A stretch of DNA of 51,792 nucleotides, from the IMG/VR virus record IMGVR_UViG_3300035659_000022, positions 1 through 51,792 of that record; one strand, given 5' to 3'. Shown here in pieces: positions 1-51,792 of the stretch. Origin of the DNA: a virus (lineage: Duplodnaviria; Caudoviricetes). Position 1 is the first letter of the stretch. Each line of letters starts with the position of its first letter. The notes under the pieces were generated by a model. It did no database searches. It worked only from the letters and a program-made list of their open reading frames with translations, and was not told where the DNA came from. The translations under genes and the position numbers were made by a program.

Positions 1-77
1 TCCCCTTAACCACTACGACTTACTAGTGTATACCTCGTCGATTGAACACATGACTCCTGATAGGGGTAAACAGTCAC
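1..77. repeat. Terminal direct repeat (77 bp), left copy; assembly overlap of a circular contig
   Basis: 1-77 is identical to 51716-51792, and the reading frame runs through the junction. Confidence 0.95.
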
Positions 78-421
78 TTGTGGAAGCTCGCAAGGTCGCG
101 AGGAAGGGTGCAACGCTTTTTCTATCCTGCCCCGTCACCCCCGAGGGTCAGGACGGCTACAATACACAATATTCTGCTCATGTGTACGAGTGGAAGAGGT
201 CAGAAATCGAACAAGGGTTGAAAGACACCGATTGGCAACTGGAGGAAGCCTATGGATTACTCGTTAACAAATGTGACCTATTACCCCGTTTGACTAGTGA
301 ACTGCGCCGCGCCTTCGAGAGGCAGGCCGAATATATTCCCTGGGAATGGCTGATGCCCATTTGGGCGAGCCAGTTTCCAGAGGTCGCCAAAGAAGTGGCG
401 TACACTGCAAAAGCATTGTAA
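1..421 (+). CDS. Class I SAM-dependent methyltransferase, C-terminal part
   Basis: SSIEHM...KGATLFLSCP...HVYEW is typical of the C-terminal half of a Methyltransf_11/25-type fold; in frame with 51366. Confidence 0.8.
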   Translation, partial: PLNHYDLLVYTSSIEHMTPDRGKQSLVEARKVARKGATLFLSCPVTPEGQDGYNTQYSAHVYEWKRSEIEQGLKDTDWQLEEAYGLLVNKCDLLPRLTSELRRAFERQAEYIPWEWLMPIWASQFPEVAKEVAYTAKAL

Positions 422-431
422 GGAGATCAAA

Positions 432-815
432 ATGCCTACATTCAAGCAAGTAAACCCAGATGAAATTGAGCTGCTACGAGGTAGGGCTAGAGGTCGCGTT
501 TCCTACCCTATTATCAAGGGGTTCTTAGAAACTGGCTTCTACATCGCTCAGGTTGATCTATCCGATACCACGCGGAAGGCGCCGACGATGCATGTACTAT
601 TGAAGTCCTATGTCCAAAACCACGACACACCTGTCAAGCCCCTCCTACGTCGCAATACCCTCTACCTAATGCGCCTCGATGTTGACAAAGAAGGCAATCC
701 AGTTCCGAATTGGCGTGCCATTCGCGATGCGGACATTGAGGGTGAGGTTACGGATGCCGGCGTAACCGAAATAATCGCCAAGCCCGTTGTGGAAAAAGGG
801 GCTAAGGCAAAATGA
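432..815 (+). CDS. Hypothetical protein inside the deazaguanine cluster
   Basis: AGGAG RBS and ATG; overlaps the queE start (ATGA). Confidence 0.7.
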   Translation: MPTFKQVNPDEIELLRGRARGRVSYPIIKGFLETGFYIAQVDLSDTTRKAPTMHVLLKSYVQNHDTPVKPLLRRNTLYLMRLDVDKEGNPVPNWRAIRDADIEGEVTDAGVTEIIAKPVVEKGAKAK

Positions 816-1456
816 GCACTAACTACCAGGTAAACGAGATATTCCAAAGCATCCAAGGCGAGGGGGTCCTCGCTGGCATACCCGCAACCTTCATCCGTCT
901 GCAAGGCTGTAATGTTGGCTGCAACTTCTGTGACACCAAGTACACGTGGAAGGCTGGCGGCAAGTCCATGACGGTCGACGAGGTCATCGTCGCATGCAAG
1001 CCCCTTAGACCGTTGGTGGTCGTGACAGGCGGCGAACCTACGTTGTACGACCTCGACGAACTGTTTGTCGAGCTCCGTGACGCAGGTCAGACTCTGTGGA
1101 GCCATGACTTCCGCATCCAACTCGAGACGTCGGGACAGAACTCCTTGAGGGGTGCTCGCACTCCGGACTTCATAACCTGGTCTCCGAAGGCTAACCTCAA
1201 GTATGACGCTCCGAAAGACATCAAGGCCCAGGCCTTTGAGGTTAAGTGGGTTGTGGACGACATTCTCGACCTGCACCTCGTCGAAATAGTCATGCAGGAG
1301 GTCAACGCGGTTTCGGCGCGAAACCCCATATGCGTCTTGATGCCGGAAGGCTGTCCACCTACACAGGAACACGCGCTGAAGGCGGTATCTTGGCTAAGCA
1401 AACACTCAGACTGGCGTTACGGCGACCGCCTACAATTCCGAATTGGGGTAAAGTAA
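812..1456 (+). CDS. queE: 7-carboxy-7-deazaguanine synthase (radical SAM)
   Basis: EIFQSIQGEG, FIRLQGCNVGCNFCDT (CxxxCxxC), TGGEP, ETSG, SPK. Confidence 0.93.
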   Translation: MSTNYQVNEIFQSIQGEGVLAGIPATFIRLQGCNVGCNFCDTKYTWKAGGKSMTVDEVIVACKPLRPLVVVTGGEPTLYDLDELFVELRDAGQTLWSHDFRIQLETSGQNSLRGARTPDFITWSPKANLKYDAPKDIKAQAFEVKWVVDDILDLHLVEIVMQEVNAVSARNPICVLMPEGCPPTQEHALKAVSWLSKHSDWRYGDRLQFRIGVK

Positions 1457-1457
1457 C

Positions 1458-2036
1458 ATGACAACAAAACCAAAACCCCGCACGGACGCCATTGACGAAA
1501 GTGGTATGACGGATATCCTCTCTCGCATATTCGGCGAAAATGTTTGGGACGACGACGTAAGTCAAACCGCAAAGCGCTGGTTGAAAGCAATGCAAGAGTT
1601 CACCCCACAGAAGACTATGCCCTTTAAGTTCACCGTGTTCCCTGCATCCGTCAACCAGTTGATCGTCGTGTGTGGTATCCAATTTGCAAGCCTATGTGCC
1701 CATCACCTATTCCCATTCGTTGGCGAGTGCCATGTGGGATACATCCCAAATAGGAAGCAGGTCGGTCTAAGTAAGATCCCTCGCTTAGTACACTGGTTTG
1801 CGACGCAGCCTCAATCTCAAGAAAAGCTAACGTCAGACATCGCTACCTTTCTCAAGCATGAACTCGAGGCGATGGGAGTCGCGGTTGTTATCGAAGCGAC
1901 TCATACTTGTATGTCAGCTCGCGGTGTACGCGAGCATAACGGTATCATGCGGACTTCCGAAATGCGTGGACTATTTTTAACCGCTTCTGAGGCCCGCAAT
2001 GAATTCCTTACTTTGATCGGGAGGTCAACAAAATGA
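1458..2036 (+). CDS. folE: GTP cyclohydrolase I
   Basis: SLCAHHLFPF, GLSKIPR, QE, HTCMSARG (Zn ligands C/H/C). Confidence 0.95.
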   Translation: MTTKPKPRTDAIDESGMTDILSRIFGENVWDDDVSQTAKRWLKAMQEFTPQKTMPFKFTVFPASVNQLIVVCGIQFASLCAHHLFPFVGECHVGYIPNRKQVGLSKIPRLVHWFATQPQSQEKLTSDIATFLKHELEAMGVAVVIEATHTCMSARGVREHNGIMRTSEMRGLFLTASEARNEFLTLIGRSTK

Positions 2037-2323
2037 CTAAGCCTCTGAGTGTAAGAGCGGCACTACAAACGGTTATGGATCAAGTTGACTACACCTCTGG
2101 CGCTTGCAGAGTAACCGAAATGGTTGGCGCTGTCTTATCCAAAGACGTAATCGAGCTTGCCAAAGAAGCCATTCGGGCAGCGTCCGACAACGCCCTCCAA
2201 GTTTGCCAACTACTACTTCGGTTTGCTGATAGTAAATATGATGAACAGGAAGCCAGCGACGCAGGTGATATCCTTGCCGAGGCTATTAACCTTGCTCGTG
2301 AAGTCTTAAAGGAGCCCAAATGA
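2033..2323 (+). CDS. Hypothetical protein
   Basis: Coupled by ATGA overlaps to folE and to the next gene. Confidence 0.65.
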   Translation: MTKPLSVRAALQTVMDQVDYTSGACRVTEMVGAVLSKDVIELAKEAIRAASDNALQVCQLLLRFADSKYDEQEASDAGDILAEAINLAREVLKEPK

Positions 2324-3057
2324 AACTGATGGTGATAGCACCCCCGAATGCGTTGAGTGTACTGACTACTATGCGGTTGAGCGCACATCTCGTTCTTGCT
2401 CAGCATGTGCAGGATCCTATCTATAGGGCTTTCTACCAATCGGCACAGCGTCGTGGCGCTTTCATTATGCTTGACAACGGCGCAGGGGAGCTAGGCCGCT
2501 CACTCCCAATTGCGGACCTCGTCGAAGCGGCCAATGAGGTGCATGCAGACGAAATCACCTTACCCGACGTACTCGGCGATGCTGATGCTACACTCAGCGC
2601 AACGAGGGCCGCCATGCCTGACGTACCTAGAAAAGCCCGAGCTGTATGCCCTCATGGTACTACCTGGGACGAGTGGGAGGCATGTGCATACGCAATGGTA
2701 CAATGGGGCTGTGCAACCATTTGTATAGGCCGCTACGACAACCTTCCTGGAGGGCGTATCCCAGCACTTGCAATAATCCTTAAAAACAATTGGCAATGGA
2801 CACATCATATTCACTTGTTCGGTTGTTCCGAGCCGCCACTCGCGGAGACTCGTCGTGAGCTTGCAGCCGCACCGTGGATTCGTTCGATGGACACAGGAGC
2901 AGCGGTAGCCTTCGCCCAAGAAGACTGCCTTATTAACGATGGTGCTGGACACGCTTCATTGAAATGGGGGGCACCTTTCAACTCTCGGTATACCGAGCAA
3001 AACATCGACCTGTTACTTGACATCTGTAATGGAGAGCGACCTTGCATGTTACATTGA
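2320..3057 (+). CDS. dpdA: TGT-fold 7-deazaguanine DNA transglycosylase, DpdA-like (divergent)
   Basis: TGT-family motifs in order: IMLDNGA (DSGG-like Asp), LPDVLGD, PHG (QG-like), HIHLFG, RSMDTG (second catalytic Asp); adjacent to folE and queE. Confidence 0.7.
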   Translation: MKLMVIAPPNALSVLTTMRLSAHLVLAQHVQDPIYRAFYQSAQRRGAFIMLDNGAGELGRSLPIADLVEAANEVHADEITLPDVLGDADATLSATRAAMPDVPRKARAVCPHGTTWDEWEACAYAMVQWGCATICIGRYDNLPGGRIPALAIILKNNWQWTHHIHLFGCSEPPLAETRRELAAAPWIRSMDTGAAVAFAQEDCLINDGAGHASLKWGAPFNSRYTEQNIDLLLDICNGERPCMLH

Positions 3058-3281
3058 AAAATCAAACCACGAAAGAAGTCGAAGGTGTCCTTTGTGTTAA
3101 TAGGGAAACACATACCTGCATCATACTACAAGCGGACGTGGATAGGTTGGAAGACTTGGTAGCAATTGCCCGAGCGATGAAAGTTCCTAACGTGCAGCTA
3201 ATAGTACCCAAAGCTGCAGTTAAGGAGCTCGAAGCCTACGGTTGGGCGCCCATACCTGACTTGGTAGTGGTAACAAAATGA
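3042..3281 (+). CDS. Hypothetical protein
   Basis: Fills the operon gap with coupled overlaps; start uncertain. Confidence 0.55.
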   Translation: MHVTLKNQTTKEVEGVLCVNRETHTCIILQADVDRLEDLVAIARAMKVPNVQLIVPKAAVKELEAYGWAPIPDLVVVTK

Positions 3282-3487
3282 AAAAGAAGCCGCCTGTCAC
3301 GAGCGAGAAGGTTAAAAACGCTTATCGTATTATTTGTGCGCATTCAGGAATTACTAAAGCAGCCCTGTGCAAGGAGCTCGGTATTCGCTCGCAAAATTTG
3401 GATGGGCTGCTAGCAGGATTGGAAAGGGCAAACATGCTCGTCTCCGAAGCGTACGGCGCTTACTACAAGTTTGAGGCTAAACCATGA
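3278..3487 (+). CDS. Small winged-helix DNA-binding protein
   Basis: GITKAALCKELGIRSQNLDGLLAGLERANML resembles a MarR/wHTH pattern; coupled to the polymerase. Confidence 0.55.
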   Translation: MKKKPPVTSEKVKNAYRIICAHSGITKAALCKELGIRSQNLDGLLAGLERANMLVSEAYGAYYKFEAKP

Positions 3488-6400
3488 AACCTAAAGCACC
3501 GTTTGCGGAATGCAACCTGTGTACATTGAAGAGTGAGCCCTTTGTGCCTTCTAGCGGTAAGTTCGACGCAGCTCTTGTTTGCGTCGGAGAGGCCCCAGGA
3601 GGTGTGGAAGTAGAACAAGGGAAGCCTTTCGTTGGCCCTAGCGGACAGCTTCTCGACGCGGCCGTAGCACAGGCTCAAGGAAACCCTCTCGATTCTTTTC
3701 GGACAAATGCGGTACTATGTCGTCCGCCGGGTAATCGCGATCCTTCGCAAACGGAGATTGCGTGCTGCAATCAACGGCTAGTACAAGAGCTTCTCCAAAC
3801 CAAGGTACCTATTCTCTTGCTTGGGAAGGTCGCTTGCGAGGCGCTCGGTGTAGATGCTGGTCAGCAAGGTGCGTGGTTACAATGGCAGGGACACTGGGTG
3901 ATACCAGCTTGGCATCCTGCATACGTTTTACGCAAGGCAGACGAAGCATCGGTGTTCCTAAAAGAAGTTGAGTCTGCTATACAAGGCCCGGAAAAAAGGC
4001 GAGAGTTCCACCCTAAAGTCGTTTGGGCAGAGTCCGCCGAGAACTTGAAGGTGCTGTTGGACGAATGTCCCGACGGCGCATGGGTGTCTTTCGACCTAGA
4101 AACCGATCAGGTTCAGTGGTACGATACGCCAGAAGTACCTCGGGACGCGATACTTATGTTGCAGCTCGCTTGGTGTGAGGACTTCGGTATAGTGGTCTCA
4201 GACGAACTACTTTACGACAATCCGAAGGTTCCTGAAATCCTACGGGAGTTCTTTGCTCGGGTGAAGACGGTAGGACAGAATGCAAAATTCGATTGTATAT
4301 TCCTACGAAGCCATTTAGGTATCGCACCGTTCCTAGACTTCGACACGATGCTAGCCCAATATTGCGTATCACCTTTGACCCCGGTACTAAAGACCGACCT
4401 GACTTGGGTGCCTGCGGACTCCTTGGCACCTGGCGACGAACTGGTAGCTTTTCAAGTGCAGGATACCTCTCAGGCCCTACCGGCTGTAGTAGTCGCCACC
4501 AAAAAGCAGGAAGCCGAATGCTACGAAGTTGTAACCACTGAAGGGACGGTAGTATGCAGTAAAGGCCATCGCTGGCCCTGCCATATCAATCATCAAGGTT
4601 ATGTGCACTATCAGACAACAGAGCAGTTAGCACGCTCTAGGGGGCAACGAGACCTAATGTACTTCTGCGCTCCCTGGGAGGTAGACGTTACCTACGAGGG
4701 AGGCTACATTGCAGGCATACTTGATGGTGAGGGCTCCCTGGGCTGCGCCAACGGGGGCAAGAAGGCGGGGACGCAAGCCTACGACGTAAGCATCTCCCAA
4801 AACCCGGGTGTTGTACTTGACCGTGTTTCGGCTATTCTGGAGCGGAAGGGATTCAAAACGCGCCTTAGTAAGCTTGGCGATGGCTTGTGCATGCAGCTCC
4901 ATTTTCGGGGAGCTCGTGAGGGCTTACGAGCTTTGGGTACTTTCCGTCCTGTCCGTCTATTACCGAAGGCTCGGCAACTATGGGAGGGTAGACGTAAACA
5001 CCGAAAAGCTTCTATCCTGGCAATCAACTACCTTGGTATTCGGGAAGTAATCGGTATCGAGACTACTACTGGTACCTTTATCGCGAACGGGTTTTTGAGT
5101 CATAATTGTCTTGATGAGACAATGCCTTTAGGGCTGAAGAAAATGGCAACCCTGGAGTTCGGCATTCCTGATTACGAGCCGGAGCTGGTTACGCAGTATC
5201 TAACCTCCCGGAATGACCGGTATTCAAAAGTCCCTCCCGATAAGTTGGCACAGTATGGGGTTTTAGATGTTGTAGTCACACTTGCACTACGTGAGGTCCT
5301 CGAGAAAAGACTCCGCGACGCGGGGCAGTATGAATCGCCGTTTATGAATATCATTATGCCTGCATCTCGCATGCTCGAGAACGCAGAGCTCCGGGGGTTG
5401 TTAGTAGACAACAACGCACTCGAGACAGCCGGTGAGCGGTTTCAAAAACTCATTGCCGAGAAGGCTGCAGCCCTTAGGGAGTGCGTAGAAGAGCCCGACT
5501 TGAATCCTAATGCTCCAACACAAGTGGCTGCAGTACTCTACGATAAACTAAAGCTCCCGATGCCGCACGGCTACAAGATACAACCTCGGTCGACGGGAGC
5601 TCCCGCTCTCGATCAGCTAAAAGGACTCCACCCGGTGATTCAACTTTTGGAGGAGTATCGTAGAGTTGCGAAGCTGTACTCCTCCTACGTTAAGAATGTT
5701 GTAGCGTTTCGCGATAATCAAGGTCGCGTACATGCCCGCTTTTTGATTCAGGGGACGGAGGTTGGAAGGTTGGCTGTCCGCGATCCTGCTTTGCAAACTA
5801 TCAGTCGCCCGGATGATGAGTATGGTGGAATGGTTCGTAGTATGTACGTTGCAGCTCCCGGAAAGGTACTTGTCATTGCAGACTACAGTCAAGCTGAACT
5901 GCGGGTATTAGCTGCATACAGTAAAGAGCCTTTCCTTCTGGACGTCTATGCTCGCGATCGTGACCTACACGAAGAAGTTGCCTTGGTAATGTTTGGACCC
6001 CAGCGTACCAAGGCGCAGCGGGCGATATGCAAAATGTTCAACTTTGCCTATGTCTACGGCGGCACGATATATTCGTTTGCGGAAGAGTTGGGATTGCCGT
6101 TGGAAACAGCTCGCCAGTTTGTACGCAAGTATGACGAGAATATGCCTGTAGCGCTCGCGTGGAAAAAGGAGCAGTTTGTCAAAGCGCAGGCGGATGGGTA
6201 TGTCGAAACAATCTTTAGGCGGCGTCGGCACTTTCCACTCATAACCAACGACAACATAAAGGATGTGCGAAAGGCTAGTGTACATATGGTGGTTGCGGGA
6301 ACTGCTAGCGATCTCACGCTAAGGTCTTGCATCGAGCTTGAGGCCTTAGGGATACCCGTAGTACTTACGGTACATGATAGCGTTATGGCCGAAGTGGATG

Positions 6401-6585
6401 AGGAGACTGCTAAGGCCGTTGGTGAGCGGATGCACAAAGTGCTGATGGGGATGGGAGAAAGGTATTTGCCGGAGGTGCTGTGGAAAGTGGATGTTGAGAT
6501 CAGGCGTAGGTGGTACGGAGATGATTACTTGACCTTAGAGGATGGAGAGTGGGTGGAGCATGAGACTAAAGGAGTTATTGGATGA
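3484..6585 (+). CDS. polA: Family A DNA polymerase with N-terminal family-4 uracil-DNA glycosylase domain, 3'-5' exonuclease and an intein
   Basis: UDG: CxxC, GEAPG, LCRPPGNR, HPAY. Exo: FDLET, QNAKFD, YGVLD. Pol: ADYSQAELR (motif A), KMFNFAYVYG (motif B), TVHDS (motif C). Confidence 0.93.
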   Translation: MKPKAPFAECNLCTLKSEPFVPSSGKFDAALVCVGEAPGGVEVEQGKPFVGPSGQLLDAAVAQAQGNPLDSFRTNAVLCRPPGNRDPSQTEIACCNQRLVQELLQTKVPILLLGKVACEALGVDAGQQGAWLQWQGHWVIPAWHPAYVLRKADEASVFLKEVESAIQGPEKRREFHPKVVWAESAENLKVLLDECPDGAWVSFDLETDQVQWYDTPEVPRDAILMLQLAWCEDFGIVVSDELLYDNPKVPEILREFFARVKTVGQNAKFDCIFLRSHLGIAPFLDFDTMLAQYCVSPLTPVLKTDLTWVPADSLAPGDELVAFQVQDTSQALPAVVVATKKQEAECYEVVTTEGTVVCSKGHRWPCHINHQGYVHYQTTEQLARSRGQRDLMYFCAPWEVDVTYEGGYIAGILDGEGSLGCANGGKKAGTQAYDVSISQNPGVVLDRVSAILERKGFKTRLSKLGDGLCMQLHFRGAREGLRALGTFRPVRLLPKARQLWEGRRKHRKASILAINYLGIREVIGIETTTGTFIANGFLSHNCLDETMPLGLKKMATLEFGIPDYEPELVTQYLTSRNDRYSKVPPDKLAQYGVLDVVVTLALREVLEKRLRDAGQYESPFMNIIMPASRMLENAELRGLLVDNNALETAGERFQKLIAEKAAALRECVEEPDLNPNAPTQVAAVLYDKLKLPMPHGYKIQPRSTGAPALDQLKGLHPVIQLLEEYRRVAKLYSSYVKNVVAFRDNQGRVHARFLIQGTEVGRLAVRDPALQTISRPDDEYGGMVRSMYVAAPGKVLVIADYSQAELRVLAAYSKEPFLLDVYARDRDLHEEVALVMFGPQRTKAQRAICKMFNFAYVYGGTIYSFAEELGLPLETARQFVRKYDENMPVALAWKKEQFVKAQADGYVETIFRRRRHFPLITNDNIKDVRKASVHMVVAGTASDLTLRSCIELEALGIPVVLTVHDSVMAEVDEETAKAVGERMHKVLMGMGERYLPEVLWKVDVEIRRRWYGDDYLTLEDGEWVEHETKGVIG
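4363..5106 (+). mobile_element. Intein (248 aa) with a LAGLIDADG-type endonuclease motif, inside the polymerase exonuclease domain
   Basis: Begins CVSPLTPV, block B-like CSKGHRW, YIAGILDGEGS, ends FIANGFLSHN followed by Cys; removal restores DTMLAQY-CLDETMPLGLK. Confidence 0.9.
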
Positions 6586-8893: not shown

Positions 8894-8894
8894 A

Positions 8895-10689: not shown

Positions 10690-10693
10690 AGGG

Positions 10694-11053
10694 TTAGTCC
10701 GTTATCGCATTCACAAAACCATGGATCGTTATTACGTTTGCAGCAGCTGCGAAAGCAGTTACTGCACAACCATTCTGTAGAGGGAGACCAGGAACAATCA
10801 ACATCAATCCTGACTGGGATGCAACATTGACCTTAATTGTATCATCAGGCACTGTGACGCCGCCGAATTCTATGGTCAGTAACCGCGTAACAGTATCACT
10901 ATTGTAAGCAAATAACCATATTTCATCATAGGTGCCTGGTGTAGTTCCGGCCACAGCAGTATGAACGGTTGTACCTAGCGTTGCAGTTGCTACAACCTTG
11001 ATCCCTCTTCCGTTTGTCGAACCCGATAGTTTTCTCTTTACGGCAGTTGCCAT
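10694..11053 (-). CDS. Small virion structural protein (tail fibre accessory)
   Basis: GGAG RBS; beta-rich 119 aa; follows the fibre gene. Confidence 0.55.
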   Translation of the reverse strand: MATAVKRKLSGSTNGRGIKVVATATLGTTVHTAVAGTTPGTYDEIWLFAYNSDTVTRLLTIEFGGVTVPDDTIKVNVASQSGLMLIVPGLPLQNGCAVTAFAAAANVITIHGFVNAITD

Positions 11054-11064
11054 ATTATGTCTCC

Positions 11065-13104
11065 TTAACTAAATACTTGAACTACCAAAAAGTCTGCCCC
11101 GCCGCCACCGCCCGGAATTGTCACGAGGGTTTTTGAACTGCCTGGAACATCGGTAACAGTAACTCCCACCCCTGCAAAGTCAAGATTTGGTTCGGCAGCA
11201 AGCGGCGTTCCCTCATCTTGAATAACGTGACCCCCGCCTGCACCCGGCGCACCACCATCTCTTATAAGTTTCCCAGTCGTCGTATCAAAAACAGCCATGT
11301 TCCCATCAACAGCATCTGCTGGACCTACTACATCGCCACCGCCTGCAGGAACTGTACCACCATCCTTGATATGATAACCATCTGTATCGAATACTGCTAG
11401 ATGTTCATCGGTTGCAACAGCATCACCATAAACATCGCCGCCTGCACTAGGTGAACTCACCCAGCCTGCATCTTGTCTCGAGTAGGGCGTGCTATCTATA
11501 GGCGCTTCTTCTATACCTGCTTCGGGGAGATCTTTTGCCTCCCACTGGTCGTTTACGTCAACCCACGTTAAGACTTGTGCATCACCTGGAGTAATATCTG
11601 CATCAACAGTCGTCCCAGCGATTGCGGCTGCGTCATCTACAATGCCATCATCATCAGTGTCATAGATGGACTTAAGCATATCCCCCACCTCCCCCATAGG
11701 AGAGTTAAATGTAGCAATAACGTGAACGGTTAAGTCTTCACCTGCGTAGGTACTTCCAACTTGGTCCATATCAGCTGATAAGTAGTCGCCATCAGCCCAA
11801 GAAGTATCGTCCACAGTTACTGAAAAACCAGTGTGTGCACCATCGGCAATCTGTGGTCGATGTGCCTGGTTCGTGAAGATAGTTGTTCCGTTCTTATGAA
11901 CATCTACAATAATCGCAGCCCCAGTCGGCGCGACAGTAGCTGTAAGATAAACCTGAGAGATGGTTGCCGTTACACCTAGTTTGTTGTATATCCGGATCGT
12001 ACCACCAACAGCAGTTAACCTACCTTCAAAGGTAAAAACAGCTGCACGTGTTGCTATTGGCGCTCCCTCTATCGTAACCATCGTGGCAGCATTGCCTGGA
12101 TCGTTTTCTGCCAAGACACCTGTACCTTTGAAGTTTAGGTTTGGTTGTACCGCTAGTGGAGTACCTTCATCTTGTATTACGTGACCGCCTCCCGGGATTG
12201 TCACCAAAGTCTTAACACTACCTGGAACATCTGTGACTGTTACTCCTGCTCCCGCGAAGTCGAGATTTGGCTCAGCATCAAGAGGTACCCCTTCGTCCTG
12301 GATAACGTGACCACCACCGGTACCGCCACCGGTAGAAACAAATCGTAAGTCTACGAAGTCATTGACGTTGCCGGTACAGCGTAGTGCTGTTTGGCCATAG
12401 TATAGCTTGGCCGCACAAATAGCTCTGTCTCCGTCTTCCAACTCTGGGATGTCAGTTTCTGTTAGCATCATGTATGCTGAGATGAATGGGTCCGCCTGTT
12501 CCGCTACAAGATCGCCATCTCGAACTGCAAAGATCCCATCTATATCAGCAACGATGACGGCGAATCTTGCACAACCCGTAGTAATGGATGTGACACTGTC
12601 TGCTAGACTGACATTAGTTATCTGAGAGTACACCTTCCAACCAGTGGTCGTGCGGTAAGCATTTGGGTAGATATCTACAGTCAATGTACTAACAACAGGG
12701 TAATACATCGAAGGTAGGAACTGTTCGCCTCGAACATAGACAGTATCTCCACTCGGCCACTCATGTTGTTTGTGGTGCCAGACAGGACCAACCCCAGTAC
12801 CAACACCAACACCAACACCAGGAACACCATAGAACGAATCTCGCACTCCCAAAACTTGTAAGGTACCTGGATAGCTACTAGCCGGATCATAACCAATTTT
12901 GACTTCTAGCCCTGATAGATTGGGAACACGAACATTTAGAACATTATCAAGGACTACCCCAGTCTTAAGTGTTACATAGATTATCGACGTCTTACCTGGT
13001 ACTTCTATGATACCCGTCGAGAGATTACCAATAACGCCAAACAAAACGTTGGGCTTCTGTTGGTAAATCTCTAATCGCTTGGTTACAGCATCTTTTATCT
13101 TCAT
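11065..13104 (-). CDS. Tail fibre protein with internal modular repeats
   Basis: GGHVIQDEGxPL...PNL x3, GGDVxGxA..D...AVFDT x2, Gly-rich linkers; likely start ATG 13104. Confidence 0.7.
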   Translation of the reverse strand: MKIKDAVTKRLEIYQQKPNVLFGVIGNLSTGIIEVPGKTSIIYVTLKTGVVLDNVLNVRVPNLSGLEVKIGYDPASSYPGTLQVLGVRDSFYGVPGVGVGVGTGVGPVWHHKQHEWPSGDTVYVRGEQFLPSMYYPVVSTLTVDIYPNAYRTTTGWKVYSQITNVSLADSVTSITTGCARFAVIVADIDGIFAVRDGDLVAEQADPFISAYMMLTETDIPELEDGDRAICAAKLYYGQTALRCTGNVNDFVDLRFVSTGGGTGGGHVIQDEGVPLDAEPNLDFAGAGVTVTDVPGSVKTLVTIPGGGHVIQDEGTPLAVQPNLNFKGTGVLAENDPGNAATMVTIEGAPIATRAAVFTFEGRLTAVGGTIRIYNKLGVTATISQVYLTATVAPTGAAIIVDVHKNGTTIFTNQAHRPQIADGAHTGFSVTVDDTSWADGDYLSADMDQVGSTYAGEDLTVHVIATFNSPMGEVGDMLKSIYDTDDDGIVDDAAAIAGTTVDADITPGDAQVLTWVDVNDQWEAKDLPEAGIEEAPIDSTPYSRQDAGWVSSPSAGGDVYGDAVATDEHLAVFDTDGYHIKDGGTVPAGGGDVVGPADAVDGNMAVFDTTTGKLIRDGGAPGAGGGHVIQDEGTPLAAEPNLDFAGVGVTVTDVPGSSKTLVTIPGGGGGADFLVVQVFS

Positions 13105-30595: not shown

Positions 30596-31196
30596 AGGTG
30601 TCTTTCTCCCAAGCGGCTACCTCTTGCTCAGCCTTGTGCAGCTCGTCCGCTGTATACGGTTCAATTCGGCTTACACCGATGTTCGTCGTACCCGGCAACC
30701 CACCACGGTCAAGTATTTCCTTTGCAGCTGACACCTTCAGACGAGGAATGGTTAGCGCGTCGGCCAATGCGTCTGCTGCATCCTCCATGCTCCGCATTAT
30801 CTTATCACGGGCCTTGTCGACAAGAGTAACATACTCTAACAAGTTGAGCCTATCAAAGGCCTCTGCTCGCTGCCTCCACTGCCAGTCATGACACGCATGT
30901 TGCCAACTAACGGCACCCCGGACAGTGTTAGCGGTCTTTTTAAGCCCTACAGCATTCGGACGTTCAGCCGCTAAATAGGCCAAATACGCTCGCGTGAGTG
31001 TCCTACTCGGCCCAAACGGCAAGAAGTATGTCATAAACCGCACATACCACCTTAACGGCTCGTTTGGCATCTGTAGCCAAGGAGTCTCAATTACCGCCGA
31101 GGGCGAGGGTACAACTAGAACGCCGGGCCTGTTGGCAGGGGTAATCGCAAGTTGTGCGTCATCGATCGTTTGCTCAGCCATCGAGTCCTTATTCAA
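30573..31196 (-). CDS. terS: Terminase small subunit (putative)
   Basis: Directly upstream of TerL; W..RAEAFD and AAKEILDRGG motifs. Confidence 0.65.
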   Translation of the reverse strand: MNKDSMAEQTIDDAQLAITPANRPGVLVVPSPSAVIETPWLQMPNEPLRWYVRFMTYFLPFGPSRTLTRAYLAYLAAERPNAVGLKKTANTVRGAVSWQHACHDWQWRQRAEAFDRLNLLEYVTLVDKARDKIMRSMEDAADALADALTIPRLKVSAAKEILDRGGLPGTTNIGVSRIEPYTADELHKAEQEVAAWEKDTYGGNQDP

Positions 31197-31581
31197 ACTG
31201 GTGTAAGTACAAAGCAGCTGCTAAAAGAGACTCTTCACTATCGAAGGCATACCCTAATAACTTGTTGCAGTTAGGACATAGGAGCCCGCGCACGCGGTTA
31301 GTCATGTGGTCGTGGTCGACCTCAAGCCGCTCAGCAAGCTCACTTTGGTGTTTGCCACAAATGGCACAACAACCTGCTTGCGTTGAGAACAATACGCTGT
31401 AGTCGTCGAGGGTAAGGTCATATTTCTGCCGAAGGTGCTGTTCTTGCATGTACGTGCGTTTGCACTCCTTACAGACTCGGCTAAGCCCTCCAATGTTACC
31501 TACCTGAGCGGGAAATTCCTCCACCGGCTTATCCCGGTGACACCTATTGCAAACTCGAGTCAGGGCTACAGACTCACTCAT
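31189..31581 (-). CDS. Recombination endonuclease VII-like nuclease
   Basis: CAICG...LEVDHDH...VRGLLCPNCN; N-terminal CxxC/CxxC; likely start ATG 31581. Confidence 0.85.
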   Translation of the reverse strand: MSESVALTRVCNRCHRDKPVEEFPAQVGNIGGLSRVCKECKRTYMQEQHLRQKYDLTLDDYSVLFSTQAGCCAICGKHQSELAERLEVDHDHMTNRVRGLLCPNCNKLLGYAFDSEESLLAAALYLHQFE

Positions 31582-31620
31582 ATTATAAGTATACCAGAAA
31601 AGAGTCCAAAAAAATCTACC
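31582..31620 (-). promoter_or_regulatory. Leftward (late arm) promoter, possibly leaderless
   Basis: TGgTATACT extended -10 lies 6 nt upstream of ATG 31581. Confidence 0.5.
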
Positions 31621-31665
31621 GTCGGTAAAGGACCTAGGCATACCTTCGAGATCCGTAATAGTCTC

Positions 31666-44255: not shown

Positions 44256-44744
44256 ATGGAACCTCTACGATTGTGTACCAAGTGCGGCGAATTCAAGCCC
44301 CTATCGGCGTTTTACAAGCAAACGGCGAGTCCTGACGGCTTGAATAACCATTGTAAGGAGTGTATATATGCATACGTTGATGCACATAGAGAAGTACACA
44401 AAGCACGCCGCGCGGCACGGCGAAAGGCGAGCCAAGAACGCGATGCAGCATATATTGCCCATTACAAAACACGCGATGCCGCATCCATGCGTAAGCGTAA
44501 GTACAACCTTACGACGGAGGGTTACAATGCTTTGGTAGCCGCCCAAGAAGGCAAATGTGCAATCTGTGGCAACCCTCCAGTAGAAGGCAAGGAGTTATTT
44601 GTGGACCACAATCACCTATCCAACAAGGTGCGTGGACTGCTTTGTCACAGGTGTAACCAGGGCTTGATTGATGACATTGCTTGGCACCAGAAGGCTATTG
44701 AATACTTGCAAGAGGCAGGTAGAGATGCAGTCGATCCATATTAG
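44256..44744 (+). CDS. Recombination endonuclease VII-like nuclease
   Basis: CAICG...VDHNH...VRGLLCHRCN; TATAAT at 44239. Confidence 0.85.
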   Translation: MEPLRLCTKCGEFKPLSAFYKQTASPDGLNNHCKECIYAYVDAHREVHKARRAARRKASQERDAAYIAHYKTRDAASMRKRKYNLTTEGYNALVAAQEGKCAICGNPPVEGKELFVDHNHLSNKVRGLLCHRCNQGLIDDIAWHQKAIEYLQEAGRDAVDPY

Positions 44745-47046: not shown

Positions 47047-47400
47047 ATGGATCCTATTCTCGCACAAGCTATTGAAGGACGCAAAGCTGAACAACATGCC
47101 AAATATGTACGGCGCCGGGAAACCCAACTTGCAACGGAGAAAAGACGCTATGACAAGCGAACTACTTTCCTAAACGAGTACAAGGCTTCTCAGGGGTGCT
47201 TGCGTTGTGGTAATCGAAACCCGATTGTATTGGACTTTCACCACCGAGACCGCAATGGGAAGGAACTTACTACTGACCAGTTGCACCATGGGCGCCTAGA
47301 AGTAGTAAGAGCCGAGATTGCAAAGTGCGATGTGCTATGTTCTAACTGTCATCGTATAGTTGAGCACAAAATAAGGGTAGCGTCGCATGACTATGCCTAA
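47047..47400 (+). CDS. HNH endonuclease
   Basis: CLRCG...LDFHHRD...CDVLCSNCH; paralog of 6582..7007. Confidence 0.85.
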   Translation: MDPILAQAIEGRKAEQHAKYVRRRETQLATEKRRYDKRTTFLNEYKASQGCLRCGNRNPIVLDFHHRDRNGKELTTDQLHHGRLEVVRAEIAKCDVLCSNCHRIVEHKIRVASHDYA

Positions 47401-49786
47401 CGAGTTCTTAGCATGTTTCGCATTCGGTGGTTTGTTGGCAGTTGCAGTAGATAAGCCGTTGCCGACCTTTACTAAGTACTATACCCCCGAACAAGTCTCG
47501 TCGCTTGTAATTCCGGAGGGCAAGGACGCTTATTTCGGTCCTGCAATGAGGTCTAACCTAGGGGCTGACAAAACTGATATACTTGGGTCTGTTGCTTTGT
47601 GGGTAGACATAGATAATGTACAAAAGCCGCTAAGCACACTCCTGCCCTCCGCGGTGGTGTTTAGTGGTCACGGTTGGCACCTTTATTGGTTCCTTGACTC
47701 ACCAGTATTGGATATTGAGACTCTCGAGAGCCTTAACAAGGTTATGGAGGGGGACGTACCAACGGCGGACAAGGGCTGCTGGAACGCAAACCGCGTGTTA
47801 AGAATTCCGGGAACGCTCAACCAAAAGGAGAAACTACATGTTCCAGTACGTTTGGAGGGCTATCAGCCTGAACGACGGTACAGCCAAGCCGATATTGCGG
47901 TTATTGCAGGACTGGACAGTAAGACGCGGCATAAGATTCGAACCGGAGACCATCGAGGTTACAGGTCCCGCAGTGAACGTGATTGGGCAATTGTTACCCG
48001 GCTCGTGCAGTGCGGCGCCAGCGACGATCTTATTCGAGCTATTTTTGCGGGGCAACCTTGTGGTGATAAGTCAAGTGAAAATCCTGCCTATTTGGGCCAG
48101 ACTATCGAGCAAGTTAGACTAAAAGCCCCGAGCGTTGCAGCCGTAACCGATGCAAGTGGAATCGAGGAGTCAGAAGATGGATACATCATCCAGACCAAAC
48201 GAGGTCCTAAGCGCCTCAGTACCTTTACGGTTTCCCCTACCGTCTTACTCGATGGCAGTAAATTCGGTGCTGAGGATGCAATTGTCGGCGATGTGCATGC
48301 AGCAGGTTATACCTGGGAAGGTATTACTTTCAGCCGCTCGGCTTTTACATCTGTCAACAAGTTCGACCGTGAGGCTCCTGTTGCCGCGTGGCAGTGGTTG
48401 GCACACGACGACGATTTACGTGCTCTCCTTCCCTTTCTCCTTGACCAATTACGTGCGGCAGGGCTACCGAAAGTTGGAGCTACCTCAGTCCTTGGTCTAC
48501 ACAAGATTCATGACACGTGGCTGTTCCTTGGCAACAAGCAAGTTATTGGCGCGAAGGAAGTCTGGCAAGGACACGACGGTCCAATCTGTTGGCTACCTTC
48601 GCAGAAAGAACATCCAATACTCAACTTGGAAACGAAAGTCTCTAAGGGCGAGCTCAAGACAGTCAGAGAGCTCGTCCCAATGCTAAATGCGGAGTCTACA
48701 ATATGGCCGATGATAGGATGGTACGCTGCAAGTATCTTGAAGCCATGGTTAGAGGAACACCATTACCGTTTCCCCATTCTCAACGTGGCAGGTACAAAAG
48801 GCTCAGGTAAGACGACGTTGATACAGAGGGTGTTCCTGCTGTTGCTGGGCCAGATAGACCCGAAGACGTACGACGCGGGGACGACAAGGTTTGTCACGCT
48901 TGCTTTGCTAGGCTCATCCAACGCCGTTCCTATCGCGTTCAGCGAGTTTCGTTATGAACTTGTAGAGCGACTCTTGCGAACCATACTCCTCGCGTATGAT
49001 ACTGGACACGATCCTCGAGGTAAGGGTGACCAGACAACTGTAGACTACCCATTATCTGCACCCTTCAGCGTTGATGGAGAAGACCTAATTGCAGATCCCG
49101 CAGCTAGAGAGCGTCTTGTAGTTGCCCGATTACACCCCGAGGCCATCGCAGAAGGTTCCGCGGCATATATAGCATTCCACAACCTGAGGGAAGCGATGCC
49201 ACTCAACTTTGGCGGTCACTATGTCCAACAGGTCCTCAAGTTAGAGCCAGAGTGGCAACGGATGCTTGATGAAGCTCGCGAAGCGCTTTTTAAGGCCTAT
49301 CCCACGAAACTTCCCGACCGTGTGAGGGCTAACCACATCGTCGCGTATTTCGGCATAATGCTTTGGTGTGCCGTCACCCAGACAGCGCTACCTGCACCTA
49401 CAATTCTTGAAGAGAGCATTTCGTCCGTGTTTAACTTAAAGAGTGGCCGTGCGATGACGTTAGCGGATTCGATGGTCGAAGATTTGGTCAATGCGGTAGC
49501 ACAAGGTAACGCGTACTTCAATTGCGCTCTCAAAGCTGACGAGGGCCAGCTGTGGTTTCAATTAGCTCCAGCACATGCTTGGTGGGTGTCATCCAGACGT
49601 CGTCAGGGCCGGGGTGCACTCGAGAGGGACGCCATTCGTGCACAACTCAAGGAAGCGCCCTACTCAGTCTCACCTCAAGTCTTGAACGACGTCTGGATGT
49701 ACGGTGTCGACCTACAGAAAGCCGCAGACGCAGGGTTAGACGTTCCTACCAAAATATCGGAACGTGTATTCGTTGTGAGGTTCTAG
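47387..49786 (+). CDS. Primase-helicase (RepB/AEP-type primase plus P-loop helicase)
   Basis: WVDID, SGHGWHLYW, RVLRIPGTLN, SRSERD, GTKGSGKTT. Confidence 0.85.
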   Translation: MTMPNEFLACFAFGGLLAVAVDKPLPTFTKYYTPEQVSSLVIPEGKDAYFGPAMRSNLGADKTDILGSVALWVDIDNVQKPLSTLLPSAVVFSGHGWHLYWFLDSPVLDIETLESLNKVMEGDVPTADKGCWNANRVLRIPGTLNQKEKLHVPVRLEGYQPERRYSQADIAVIAGLDSKTRHKIRTGDHRGYRSRSERDWAIVTRLVQCGASDDLIRAIFAGQPCGDKSSENPAYLGQTIEQVRLKAPSVAAVTDASGIEESEDGYIIQTKRGPKRLSTFTVSPTVLLDGSKFGAEDAIVGDVHAAGYTWEGITFSRSAFTSVNKFDREAPVAAWQWLAHDDDLRALLPFLLDQLRAAGLPKVGATSVLGLHKIHDTWLFLGNKQVIGAKEVWQGHDGPICWLPSQKEHPILNLETKVSKGELKTVRELVPMLNAESTIWPMIGWYAASILKPWLEEHHYRFPILNVAGTKGSGKTTLIQRVFLLLLGQIDPKTYDAGTTRFVTLALLGSSNAVPIAFSEFRYELVERLLRTILLAYDTGHDPRGKGDQTTVDYPLSAPFSVDGEDLIADPAARERLVVARLHPEAIAEGSAAYIAFHNLREAMPLNFGGHYVQQVLKLEPEWQRMLDEAREALFKAYPTKLPDRVRANHIVAYFGIMLWCAVTQTALPAPTILEESISSVFNLKSGRAMTLADSMVEDLVNAVAQGNAYFNCALKADEGQLWFQLAPAHAWWVSSRRRQGRGALERDAIRAQLKEAPYSVSPQVLNDVWMYGVDLQKAADAGLDVPTKISERVFVVRF

Positions 49787-49896: not shown

Positions 49897-50118
49897 ATGG
49901 ATACAGGAAAAGGAAAATTCGAGATTGTCAATGCTAAAATCGAAGATGAACTTAAAGAGGCAATGCAGAGGATGGAGGCAAAGTATCCCCAGCACGGTGG
50001 TTGGTTCCACGTTGGCGAAGTTGTTGAGCTCCGTGGTAGTCGCTTTAGAGTGAAAGCGGTCAAACCCACCGAACTCCGCCTCAAGCTATTACGGCGTAAG
50101 GAATCGATTGGTGCCTAA
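49897..50118 (+). CDS. Hypothetical protein
   Basis: GAGG RBS. Confidence 0.55.
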   Translation: MDTGKGKFEIVNAKIEDELKEAMQRMEAKYPQHGGWFHVGEVVELRGSRFRVKAVKPTELRLKLLRRKESIGA

Positions 50119-50680
50119 TATAGATTTCGTCGCGGTTGATACGCCTCGCTTTACCCGTCCCGAGTTACTACGGCACGGAACAATCCCGCATGCGATGTAT
50201 GGGGTTGCTCCTCGGAACATCAAGGGGGGAGCTTGGTGGGACGTTACCAGACGAGCGGCGTATGAGGCAAACAACATGAGATGTTGGGCGTGTGGAGGCC
50301 CGGGACCTCTTGAGGCTCACGAAGCGTATCAGATTGACTACTACAAGTACCGGATGATATTCATTGAGACTGTGGCGTTATGTAGTTATTGCCACACGTT
50401 CATACATATTGGCCGACTTATTGGAATGTTCGCTCACGGTGAAGTATCGTCTACGGCGACTAAGAGAGTTGTCTTACATGGCTACCAAGTACTTAAAGCC
50501 GCCGGGCTCAAGTGCCCTTGGCAAACCAGAGTCGTCGGCAGCGACCGGCTACCTTGGAAAGGTTCCACTGGGTGGATTCGGAAAGTGCTAACCAACTGTG
50601 ACCCTATTGAGTACTTAGTAGAGGGGACCAGGTGGTGTCTAGTCTTTGAAGGAAAGGAGTATTACCAATATGCCTTATAG
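50108..50680 (+). CDS. HNH-type endonuclease
   Basis: CWACG...LEAHE...LCSYCHTFIH; overlaps the queD start. Confidence 0.7.
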   Translation: MVPNIDFVAVDTPRFTRPELLRHGTIPHAMYGVAPRNIKGGAWWDVTRRAAYEANNMRCWACGGPGPLEAHEAYQIDYYKYRMIFIETVALCSYCHTFIHIGRLIGMFAHGEVSSTATKRVVLHGYQVLKAAGLKCPWQTRVVGSDRLPWKGSTGWIRKVLTNCDPIEYLVEGTRWCLVFEGKEYYQYAL

Positions 50681-51116
50681 CATATCGCGTGCGTATTCTT
50701 TTTGCGCCGCACATAGGATTGAAGGCCATCCTAAATGCGGCCGGCTGCACGGTCACAACTACGAAGTTATTGTCGAGTATGCCCATCCCGCTATCCCACA
50801 AGACGGGATGCTCATCGACTACGGCGAACTCGACAAGATCGTGAAGCCTATCATCGGCCGGATGGACCACCGCTACATTCTATCGTCGAGTAACATCTTG
50901 ATGAATGATCCCTACAGGAAGGTCGCGTTTGAACGCGGTGACGTGTTTGAGTTACCTACGGCTGCATCAACAGCGGAGCTTCTTGCGGAGTTTCTGTGGA
51001 ACGAGGTCTTCCAAGCCCTTCGGCTTGACTATCCTGTCTACCCGCAGAACCTAAGGATCATCGTGAAAGAGACGCCGAAGAGTAGCGCCGCCTACCAAGG
51101 AGAGGTGCCAAAATGA
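50670..51116 (+). CDS. queD: 6-carboxy-5,6,7,8-tetrahydropterin synthase
   Basis: FCAAHR, KCGRLHGHNY, IDYGEL, DHRY, TAE, ETP; AAGGAG RBS before ATG 50670. Confidence 0.93.
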   Translation: MPYSISRAYSFCAAHRIEGHPKCGRLHGHNYEVIVEYAHPAIPQDGMLIDYGELDKIVKPIIGRMDHRYILSSSNILMNDPYRKVAFERGDVFELPTAASTAELLAEFLWNEVFQALRLDYPVYPQNLRIIVKETPKSSAAYQGEVPK

Positions 51117-51373
51117 AAACACTTACAGAAGAGCGACAAGCGGTATACGGGAACGCTAGTACACTAACAGGTCAGATGTGTCGGCTTGTTATTGGCGACC
51201 TCACAATCTTGTGCCTTCACCATCCAGAAATGTTCCACCCTTGGATAAGGATATTGAACAAGTTACTCCGTATACTGTACTCGCCGACTAATGTAGACCA
51301 CTGGGTAGACATCCGGGGCTACACGGAGATCGTTATCCACCATTTGACTGCGGAAGGAAAGGGTAGTGACTGA
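51113..51373 (+). CDS. Small helical protein, DUF6378 / nucleotide pyrophosphohydrolase-like
   Basis: EERQAVYG...K..R...DHWVDIRGY pattern; between queD and the methyltransferase. Confidence 0.5.
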   Translation: MKTLTEERQAVYGNASTLTGQMCRLVIGDLTILCLHHPEMFHPWIRILNKLLRILYSPTNVDHWVDIRGYTEIVIHHLTAEGKGSD

Positions 51374-51792
51374 AGACTCTTGCTCGACGTACCAGATGCG
51401 TAACTTCTACGCGCAGTTCGGCGACGGCTTCTTTACCTCGTTGGATGTTATGAACTATATACAGCATGCGGCTGTCGTGCGTAAAGCTCGAGACGACGAC
51501 AACGTTCTGGACATCTGCTGTGGGCGGGGCCTCTTGCTTCCGTTACTACGTTATCAGAAGAAGACTATAAATTCATACACAGGTGTTGACCTTGAACCAA
51601 ACAATGTGATCTTTCGGACGCGTCGAGTTACAGACGGCAAGCCGGTAGCGCCCGGCTACTACCCCTTCAAGGTATACTTTGCTAAGGTAGATGCAGTCGA
51701 AATGACTAACCTACTTCCCCTTAACCACTACGACTTACTAGTGTATACCTCGTCGATTGAACACATGACTCCTGATAGGGGTAAACAGTCAC
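51366..51792 (+). CDS. Class I SAM-dependent methyltransferase, N-terminal part (continues across the junction to 421; about 256 aa in total)
   Basis: Manual translation from GTG 51366 (alternative ATG 51396): MRNFYAQFGDGFF...NVLDICCGRGLLL...YTGVDLE...DLLVYTSSIEH. Shows motif I (DxxCGxG), the acidic end of strand 2 (GVD) and a post-motif IV IEH. In frame with ORF 26..421. Confidence 0.85.
   Translation, partial: MTEDSCSTYQMRNFYAQFGDGFFTSLDVMNYIQHAAVVRKARDDDNVLDICCGRGLLLPLLRYQKKTINSYTGVDLEPNNVIFRTRRVTDGKPVAPGYYPFKVYFAKVDAVEMTNLLPLNHYDLLVYTSSIEHMTPDRGKQS
51716..51792. repeat. Terminal direct repeat (77 bp), right copy
   Basis: Identical to 1-77. Confidence 0.95.

Follow-up and report, generated by a model that had tools for sequence, protein, structure and literature searches.

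The operon and its genome

The DNA analyzed here, hereafter the window, is the 51,792-nt IMG/VR record IMGVR_UViG_3300035659_000022 of an uncultured phage (Caudoviricetes). Its subject is an operon for 7-deazaguanine modification of DNA that includes a gene for a class I S-adenosylmethionine (SAM) methyltransferase. Comparison of the window ends showed that the first 77 bases are an exact repeat of the last 77, IMG/VR classes the record under direct terminal repeats, and CheckV completeness is 100%; the genome is therefore complete and circularly permuted, with a length of 51,715 bp. Its G+C content is 51%. A single operon on the + strand spans the circular junction from HNH through PolA (Table 1), and neighboring genes overlap by 4-35 nt or are separated by gaps of 1-10 nt. 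Open reading frames (ORFs), Pfam and PHROG matches gave the same gene order as an initial annotation of the sequence: HNH, QueD, a small protein, the methyltransferase, an unknown protein, QueE, FolE, a second unknown protein, DpdA, two small genes and PolA. That annotation had also placed the methyltransferase gene across the junction, and the joined frame is indeed open over 256 codons and aligns with intact homologs in L001 and L002 over residues 2-256 (L and G numbers denote related loci and records). The operon is a 7-deazaguanine DNA-modification operon of the DpdA3-like kind.

Table 1. Genes of the modification operon and their positions in the window (aa, amino acids).
Feature	Position	Strand	Evidence
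HNH endonuclease, 190 aa	50108..50680	+	phrog_5200 6e-19; tblastn to L002 5601-6122, 46%
QueD (6-carboxy-tetrahydropterin synthase)	50646..51116, likely ATG start 50670	+	PF01242 6.9e-26; phrog_2389 1e-20; CxxxHGH signature in translation
86-aa protein, weakly DUF6378-like	51113..51373	+	PF19905 3.5e-4, below cut-off; tblastn 35-42% to L001 and L002, where conserved
Class I SAM methyltransferase, N-terminal part	51366..51792	+	Methyltransf_23 7.9e-7, 29.4 bits vs cut-off 27; 63% identity to L001
Methyltransferase, C-terminal part	1..421 (bases 1-77 are the repeat; coding continues at 78)	+	joined protein 256 aa
Basic 127-aa protein, pI 9.2	432..815	+	tblastn 57-67% to L001/L002; conserved after the methyltransferase
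QueE (7-carboxy-7-deazaguanine synthase, radical SAM)	812..1456	+	phrog_2076 2e-32; PF04055 7.2e-9; CxxxCxxC in translation
FolE (GTP cyclohydrolase I)	1458..2036	+	PF01227 1e-51; phrog_2197 8.5e-52
Acidic 96-aa protein	2033..2323	+	no Pfam or PHROG match; matched in 0/80 related loci
DpdA3-like DNA guanine transglycosylase, TGT fold, 245 aa	2320..3057	+	AF2/Foldseek, hhalign, tblastn
Two small genes, 79 aa (3042-3281) and 69 aa (3278-3487)	3042..3487	+	ORFs
Family A DNA polymerase (PolA), last gene of the operon	3484..6585	+	PF00476 2.4e-72; PF03167 3e-21; PF01612 2.7e-10

Precursor pathway and transglycosylase

FolE, QueD and QueE are present and intact, and the phage can therefore make 7-carboxy-7-deazaguanine (CDG) from GTP. 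The initial annotation proposed that the phage-encoded route stops there and reported QueC, QueF, ArcS and Gat-QueC as missing from the genome. A six-frame profile search of the complete record, with controls positive in 14 of 14 genomes, gave no match to QueC (PF06508) at E≤10 and none in the window to the ArcS core (PF17884) or the DpdM family DUF3109 (PF11307); the sole match to QueF (PF14489), at 0.0123, was located inside FolE. Pfam scanning of 18 + 60 window ORFs found no QueC, QueF, ArcS or DpdM family, no amidotransferase, no ParB-like protein and no importer. The QueC and DJ-1 proteins of L002 returned noise against the window by tblastn (best E 0.47 and 0.17), as did the ParB-like, QueT, YhhQ and MetK-like proteins of related loci. 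One PTPS-family protein was found among the 78 ORFs scanned, and it bears CxxxHGH, which is the signature of QueD; the decarboxylase DpdL, a QueD paralog described by Cui 2023 (PMC10516641), has LxxxHRHxF instead. DpdL is thus absent from the window, as are DpdB-like and DpdC-like genes. A preQ0-type cluster would consist of FolE, QueD, QueE and QueC together with DpdA, and the window lacks the QueC. A phage-encoded route that ends at CDG is what these searches indicate.

The 245-aa DpdA-like protein had no Pfam match and belongs to a small family of 14 proteins. Its AlphaFold2 (AF2) model (pLDDT 94.7) had as top Foldseek matches the archaeosine tRNA-guanine transglycosylase (TGT) 1iq8 (1.6e-7) and many bacterial TGTs, all with probability 1.00. 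By hhalign (87.6%, E 3.5e-6), its profile aligned with DpdA family A1, the neighbor of the methyltransferase in other phages, and the Asp-x-Gly, His-x-x-Gly and Asp-Thr/Ser blocks of the two coincided. Family A1 itself matches the solved DpdA 7ui4 (4.7e-5) and the DpdA of phage 9g and its relatives, and the earlier DpdA/TGT-like call was upheld by the model, by this alignment and by the match to 7ui4. The only cultured phages matched by the window DpdA in tblastn were those of Cellulophaga and Campylobacter, the Bacillus BSP7 group (5e-6) and Weizmannia phage Youna2 (1e-6). The matches to phiST gp042 (8e-6, 30% over residues 1-126) and to Campylobacter CP20/CPt10 (7e-6, 26% over residues 33-197) were weak and partial; the Cellulophaga phages phi13:1 and phi19:2 were also matched at 8e-6. 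Gp042 of phiST occupies the position given in Cui 2023 for CGPG_00065, the founding member of DpdA3. We filed the window DpdA as DpdA3-like from this weak, partial similarity. In the DpdA3 phages described in that paper, phiST and the Campylobacter type, the phages' own pathway stops at CDG (PMC10516641).

The methyltransferase family

The joined 256-aa methyltransferase matched 80 of 80 related loci at full length. It is 59-60% identical to its closest, syntenic relatives in L001 and L002 and 42-47% identical to a group in which the operon carries an importer (L007 and kin). It was said at the outset to lack the motifs of DNA methyltransferases, and the joined protein has neither a [DNS]PP[YFW] motif nor a PC dipeptide and matches no DNA-methylase family in Pfam. 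The first of these motifs is typical of exocyclic-amine methyltransferases. The protein is also not DpdM, since it has a Rossmann-type class I fold and DUF3109 is absent. Its Pfam families are generic and of small-molecule type only, and the L002 homolog scores 45.7 bits for Methyltransf_23. The L002 protein as query retrieved 690 clusters of proteins that are about 270 aa long; most are more than 50% identical, and their sources give them only generic names. Members of the family were found in 116 viral contigs, whereas 185,579 species genomes yielded just 11 loci, among them prophages of Faecalibacterium prausnitzii and Gemmiger. The family is widespread, highly conserved and almost purely viral.

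An alignment of 35 members had 53 invariant columns. The window protein keeps 51 of these 53 residues, with Ile changed to Leu and, in a conserved CPNTP block, Asn changed to Val. Other members depart at 0-3 invariant columns in a leave-one-out count, and decay of the window methyltransferase following loss of QueC was rejected on this comparison.

An AF2 model of the L002 methyltransferase had a class I fold (pLDDT 95.2). The best PDB sequence match was the cap guanine-N7 methyltransferase 1ri1 (1.2e-6), over residues 44-112, the SAM region, only. Several routes to the substrate were set aside. Foldseek and VIA-align searches with the model returned only tied generic class I enzymes, the Protein Atlas lookup gave generic methyltransferase clusters only, with a bacterial cluster from Actinomycetota among them, and the isoelectric point as a clue to DNA binding (5.9 for the window protein vs a family median of 8.7) was uninformative.

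In the cultured phage collection, no member of the family was found at better than 25% identity. The N-terminal half found nothing there by tblastn, and with the full-length L002 protein the only homologs, about 25% identical, came from two spring-water phages, Stenotrophomonas phage AXL3 and Pseudoxanthomonas phage PW916. These were set aside as functional guides because they are too distant; AXL3 and MW202621.1 adjoin pyrimidine genes. In L084 (AXL3, gene AXL3_31) and L085, the distant homologs lie by thymidylate-synthase-like, dCMP-deaminase and NTP-pyrophosphohydrolase genes, and one is annotated as a "capping protein". This sister family may serve pyrimidine modification.

Genomic context of the family

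We surveyed 91 loci, comprising 80 of the 116 viral contigs and the 11 genome contigs, and classified their genes by tblastn, jackhmmer and Pfam. The loci are not independent; the 80 viral loci form 21 clusters at 90% identity, one of which holds 52. DpdA was found beside the methyltransferase in 91 of 91 loci (89 by tblastn, L096 by a Pfam TGT match at 1.2e-12, and L024 as a partial copy). The two genes often overlap, and the pairing occurs with both of two DpdA subfamilies and with each of three types of base supply. Of the 91 loci, 70 had an importer, either QueT or YhhQ, 15 had FolE/QueD/QueE without QueC, and 4 (L001, L002, L095 and L096) had these genes with QueC; in the remaining 2 the contig breaks off immediately downstream of the methyltransferase, so that a deazaguanine source was identified in 89 of 91. 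In the complete phage record of L003 (32 kb), the YhhQ importer directly follows the methyltransferase. Absence of QueC within the locus was the commonest synthesis context (15 of 19 loci). When 40 whole records were searched, G001 and G002 alone had a true QueC, and a weak match in G033 (7.1e-4) was below the cut-off. The complete synthesis-type records G005, G014, G017 and G018 (each 100% complete) had no QueC in this whole-record search.

In Faecalibacterium and other host genomes, tRNA TGT was matched at about 1e-156, and QueC searches gave only PP-loop noise (best 5.7e-5, 23.5 bits) compared to 1e-47 to 1e-57 for true QueC. These hosts salvage rather than synthesize. On a maximum-likelihood tree of the methyltransferase, the importer type formed a derived clade nested among the synthesis types on short branches. 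QueC was scattered on this tree, with 4 changes needed for 4 rows.

The initial annotation had proposed that homologs of the methyltransferase would be linked to deazaguanine genes and would occur where QueC is missing. The linkage was found throughout, with DpdA in every locus; the second part was not borne out as a general rule, as the 4 QueC loci and the 70 importer loci show that the methyltransferase is not specific to a route ending at CDG. The same survey bears on whether the methyltransferase could be an unrelated passenger that acts on a small molecule, RNA or protein and merely travels with the replication module. The generic small-molecule-type Pfam families would suit such a role, and the homologs in AXL3 and its relatives adjoin genes of pyrimidine metabolism rather than deazaguanine genes. 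A passenger would not be expected immediately beside DpdA in every locus, often overlapping it, through two DpdA subfamilies and three base supplies, nor to be nearly absent from cells, where several of the 11 loci are prophages. We regard a passenger as very improbable, and it is highly probable that the methyltransferase is functionally part of the deazaguanine DNA system.

Several related loci carry further genes next to the cluster. In L005, a complete 98.7-kb phage, a glycosyltransferase gene precedes the QueC-less cluster, and genes for three additional class I methyltransferases and a sulfotransferase come after it (10305-12947, 5097-5978); together they may encode a more complex modification pathway. 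After the cluster, L007 (9791-10600) and L044 (10314-11102) encode proteins of roughly 265 aa whose match to S-adenosylmethionine synthetase (2.8e-9 and 9.1e-10) is limited to its N-terminal domain, and these MetK-like proteins may be linked to SAM supply. Directly after the methyltransferase in L077, a 119-aa ORF (8847-9206) had a weak phosphoribosyltransferase match (5.8e-6, below the cut-off), which hints at a nucleotide-level route in that phage. The L003 phage, which has DpdA, the methyltransferase and YhhQ, also encodes a protein with an AcrIC5 anti-CRISPR domain (1708-2256; PF22147, 1.3e-14).

Proposed modification

We propose that FolE, QueD and QueE make CDG and that the DpdA3-like enzyme would swap it for guanine in phage DNA. 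The methyltransferase would then act on the DNA alongside DpdA, binding the constant guanine-like core and methylating a heteroatom of the C7 side chain, be it of carboxyl type or amino. In the window phage, the product would be the dCDG methyl ester (7-methoxycarbonyl-7-deazaguanine). In relatives with QueC and DJ-1/PfpI, with QueC and a DpdC-like protein, or with an importer and a QueF-L-like protein, the methyl group would instead be carried by an amidine, amide or amine derivative. The probable gain would be that phage DNA is further disguised from host nucleases and glycosylases. We give this reading, a DpdA-coupled methyltransferase that works on DNA and methylates the C7 side chain, here yielding the dCDG methyl ester, a probability of roughly 0.35. 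Its parts differ in strength. Action on DNA rather than on the free base is somewhat favored; in several related loci, DpdA and the methyltransferase have similar C-terminal tails that resemble clamp-binding motifs, and clamp genes adjoin some of the clusters. The C7 side chain as methyl acceptor is possible, with the odds leaning against it, and the CDG methyl ester as the product in this phage is tentative and rather unlikely. The ester is one chemically sensible product; the methylated atom is one that we only infer. The initial annotation had suggested methylation of CDG, and that idea is favored by the deazaguanine linkage, the route ending at CDG and a DpdA of a CDG-associated type; it did not stand as a CDG-specific activity, given the QueC-bearing sisters and the importer loci.

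A hint as to the acceptor came from genes that could handle a nitrile or amide. All 4 QueC-positive loci add such a candidate gene, either DJ-1/PfpI (L001 and L002) or a DUF6884/DpdC-like gene (L095 and L096; 2.2e-4 and 3.2e-6, both below the cut-off). In 63 of 69 importer loci, a Cys-bearing T-fold-like family of about 100 aa lies between the methyltransferase and the importer (for example L007:8749-9072, L008:5335-5640, L012:8728-9105 and L016:8693-9085, with about 60 more loci). This family has an invariant Cys and a Pro-Asp-Tyr block. Its best Pfam match (E 0.0066) was far below cut-offs, and its profile matched 8evk (1.1e-4) and the archaeosine synthase QueF-L 5jyx (0.073, with the Cys aligned), which makes it a candidate enzyme acting on the preQ0 nitrile. 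By tblastn, these partner genes were found in 0 of 15 QueC-less synthesis loci; one jackhmmer match lay 8 kb away in L080. Counted by lineage, the pattern was roughly 8-9 of 13-14 for preQ0-type input vs 0-1 of 11 for CDG-type input. As far as these weak partner assignments go, the pattern suggests that pathways with this methyltransferase do not stop at a bare nitrile, and it fits an acceptor on a carboxyl-type or amino side chain.

Methylation could instead fall on an atom common to all DNA 7-deazaguanines (N2, N1, O6 or C8), which would give a ring-methylated dCDG here. One conserved enzyme, with its 53 invariant columns in 35 sequences, serves CDG, QueC and importer loci alike, and the importer-type clade is nested among the synthesis types on short branches. 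Four importer lineages also have no nitrile-handling partner. However, a ring acceptor leaves unexplained why nitrile-handling genes so often occur in QueC and importer loci, where preQ0 is the likely input, and are absent from loci with CDG input; the methyltransferase has no [DNS]PP[YFW] motif, and literature searches found no precedent. We consider ring methylation unlikely.

The relatives in L001 and L002 bear on a different possibility, that the host completes the pathway. Host QueC, and perhaps QueF, could supply preQ0 or preQ1, and the methyltransferase would N-methylate, for example, dPreQ1 as a non-orthologous analog of DpdM; CDG would then be only an intermediate. QueC of L002 (6103-6861, 3e-55) lies exactly between the HNH homolog and QueD, where the window has none, and a DJ-1/PfpI gene precedes QueE in L002 (9151-9795, 3.9e-12) and L001 (8041-8508, 1.1e-7). 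The window has neither gene and no remnant of them, and its methyltransferase is nested with those of L001 and L002 on the tree; paired loss is therefore the simplest history, and the absence of QueC from the window probably reflects a recent loss. In phage 9g, dG+ is made by a Gat-QueC fusion, to which DJ-1/PfpI together with QueC in these sisters may correspond in split form. Host completion would also agree with the importer-type majority of loci, YhhQ being a transporter of preQ0 as described in Hutinet 2019 (PMC6884629), and mdPreQ1 is among the phage bases listed by Cui 2023 (PMC10516641). Against it, 15 of 19 synthesis loci, with four complete genomes among them, keep FolE/QueD/QueE without QueC, which would be odd if QueC were needed. 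The QueC-less DpdA3-type phages are described in the same paper as using CDG-derived bases, and true QueC is absent from the Faecalibacterium hosts of importer-type loci. We regard host completion as improbable.

A third possibility would need only guanine and DpdA. In this case, the methyltransferase would N7-methylate guanine in DNA, and the cationic m7G would be a leaving group for DpdA or a separate second mark. This would fit every context and the constant pairing with DpdA, and the best PDB sequence match and a near-cut-off Pfam match are both to cap guanine-N7 methyltransferases. Such a role would also fit the tails that DpdA and the methyltransferase have in common in several lineages. 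In L025 (7024-7929, 7941-8789), L075 (828-1763, 1779-2633), L078, L080 and L077, both proteins end in similar short tails, with basic residues followed by a Leu-Phe or Gly-Phe-x-Leu hydrophobic motif that resembles sliding-clamp-binding tails, and a clamp gene adjoins the cluster in L025, L075 and L095. The window DpdA and methyltransferase have no such C-terminal tails. A prediction of the complex between the L002 DpdA and the L002 methyltransferase, both entered as alignments, scored 0.00 and counts neither for nor against binding. The cap similarity is confined to the SAM region and does not reach the Pfam cut-off, phage DpdAs work in E. coli without such a helper in Tables 2 and 3 of Cui 2023 (PMC10516641), and the nitrile-handling partners would be left unexplained. 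N7-methylation of the target guanine is therefore quite unlikely. A 171-aa unrelated neighbor in L075 has a similar tail.

Several observations weigh against side-chain methylation with a dCDG ester as the product. The closest syntenic relatives carry QueC (E 2.9e-47 in L001 and 1.8e-57 in L002) yet retain the methyltransferase, the window protein is nested with them on the tree, the loss of QueC in the window was probably recent, and a host QueC could complete the pathway. The window methyltransferase is about 14 residues shorter at its N-terminus and has Val (CPVTP, in window 78-421) where 35 of 35 relatives have Asn. It is hard to see a single pocket with 53 invariant residues accepting acid, amidine, amide and amine side chains alike, and an amide is a poor nucleophile. 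The importer-type and QueC-less methyltransferases are close relatives, and an acceptor common to all contexts fits at least as well. The T-fold partner is missing from 6 of 69 importer loci (four lineages) and from L003; if these loci import preQ0, no side-chain acceptor would be present there. The tails are only putative clamp-binding motifs, read by their resemblance to the clamp-binding consensus. The cap-methyltransferase family PF03291 scored 20.6 and 25.5 bits against a cut-off of 26.6. The structural neighbors from VIA-align (TleD, the vaccinia and Ecm1 cap enzymes, RebM and CmoM) were tied at Z 16.4-17.9, and the fold does not discriminate the substrate. On the other side, CmoM, the carboxyl methyltransferase of the modified base cmo5U, is among these tied top neighbors (8joz, Z 17.6, and 4htf, Z 17.2), along with many unrelated methyltransferases.

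A wider form of side-chain methylation is doubtful. It holds that a family like the cap methyltransferases was re-aimed at position 7 of DNA 7-deazaguanines and would write bases that have not been observed: the CDG ester in this phage and at least 10 other QueC-less lineages, and methylated amidine or amine derivatives in importer-fed prophages of Faecalibacterium and other gut bacteria, with DpdA and the methyltransferase sharing a clamp in several lineages.

Comparison with known systems

The closest described system is that of phiST, in which DpdA3 and DpdL produce dDG (Cui, Hutinet et al. 2023, PMC10516641). As described there, phiST resembles the window in having FolE/QueD/QueE without QueC, with CDG as the branch point, and a distant TGT-fold DpdA just before the DNA polymerase genes. 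The window differs in having neither DpdL nor MazG, and its only T-fold protein carries the QueD signature. The window operon contains a class I methyltransferase of a family that phiST lacks, and its predicted product is methylated, whereas that of phiST is decarboxylated. The Campylobacter CP220-type systems for dADG (CP20 and CPt10) also have a DpdA3-type enzyme, to which the window DpdA is similar at 7e-6, and a pathway stopping at CDG in the account of the same paper (PMC10516641). Those phages are of about 175 kb and replace G completely with dADG.

For the phage enzyme DpdM, methylation of a 7-deazaguanine already in DNA, at its C7 side chain, has been proposed or shown (Cui 2023, PMC10516641). 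The window methyltransferase would share that activity by inference. The two proteins are otherwise unlike; DpdM has the DUF3109 metal-binding fold with CxxxCxxCC, whereas the window protein has a Rossmann-type class I fold, and DpdM needs the preQ1 branch, which the window phage does not encode. The importer-type cassettes of gut prophages have the same methyltransferase family, always by DpdA, but combine it with a DpdA1-like enzyme, a ParB-like helper, QueT or YhhQ and often a QueF-L-like protein. The window phage instead makes its own CDG and has a DpdA3-like enzyme; it carries neither a ParB-like gene nor an importer. The bacterial Dpd system (DpdA, DpdB and DpdC; 7ui4) likewise uses TGT-fold guanine exchange in DNA; as described in PMC10164549, it has no methyltransferase, and preQ0 is inserted and turned into dADG by DpdC.

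Searches of the full text of articles found no class I methyltransferase partnered with DpdA and no CDG methyl ester in DNA. What the window adds is a DpdA3-like, self-synthesizing, QueC-less form of the system, the comparison with its QueC-bearing sisters, the pattern of nitrile-handling partners, and the paired C-terminal tails.

Neighboring genes

Upstream of the operon lie a primase gene (47387-49786) and then a 73-aa ORF. The basic 127-aa protein had no Pfam or PHROG match and no family in the Protein Atlas, and by jackhmmer its family has three members only, in the window, L001 and L002. The 79-aa protein is conserved in L002 by tblastn, and the 69-aa protein is weakly helix-turn-helix-like in Pfam (HTH_26 3.5e-3 and MarR_2 4.8e-3, both below cut-offs).

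PolA bears an N-terminal domain of the uracil-DNA glycosylase superfamily (PF03167). A 248-aa insert in PolA (window 4363-5106), between the exonuclease and polymerase domains, starts with Cys and ends with His-Asn before a Cys; by eye it resembles an intein with a homing-endonuclease core, and Pfam found no family in it. Free-standing nuclease genes are abundant in the window, with 3 HNH (phrog_2255 and phrog_5200) and 2 Endonuclease VII genes (PF02945, 9e-21 and 1.8e-19), at 6582-7007, 47047-47400, 50108-50680, 31189-31641 and 44256-44744. The nucleases of the relatives sit elsewhere, Endonuclease VII in L002 lying between QueD and the small protein, and L001 having a LAGLIDADG gene. Such elements may have driven gene losses around QueD.

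Significance

Eight 7-deazaguanine DNA bases are known as reported by Cui 2023 (PMC10516641), and each new base of this kind changed what restriction enzymes, CRISPR nucleases, glycosylase-based defenses and sequencing chemistries detect. A prophage copy of the cassette (L090) sits in the complete genome of a cultured F. prausnitzii strain, and the question is therefore directly testable. A neutral methyl ester would spare the major groove a negative charge and so explain how a phage could use CDG. If the methyltransferase does methylate the inserted base, it would produce a ninth such base and perhaps more derivatives, some of them in abundant human-gut phages.

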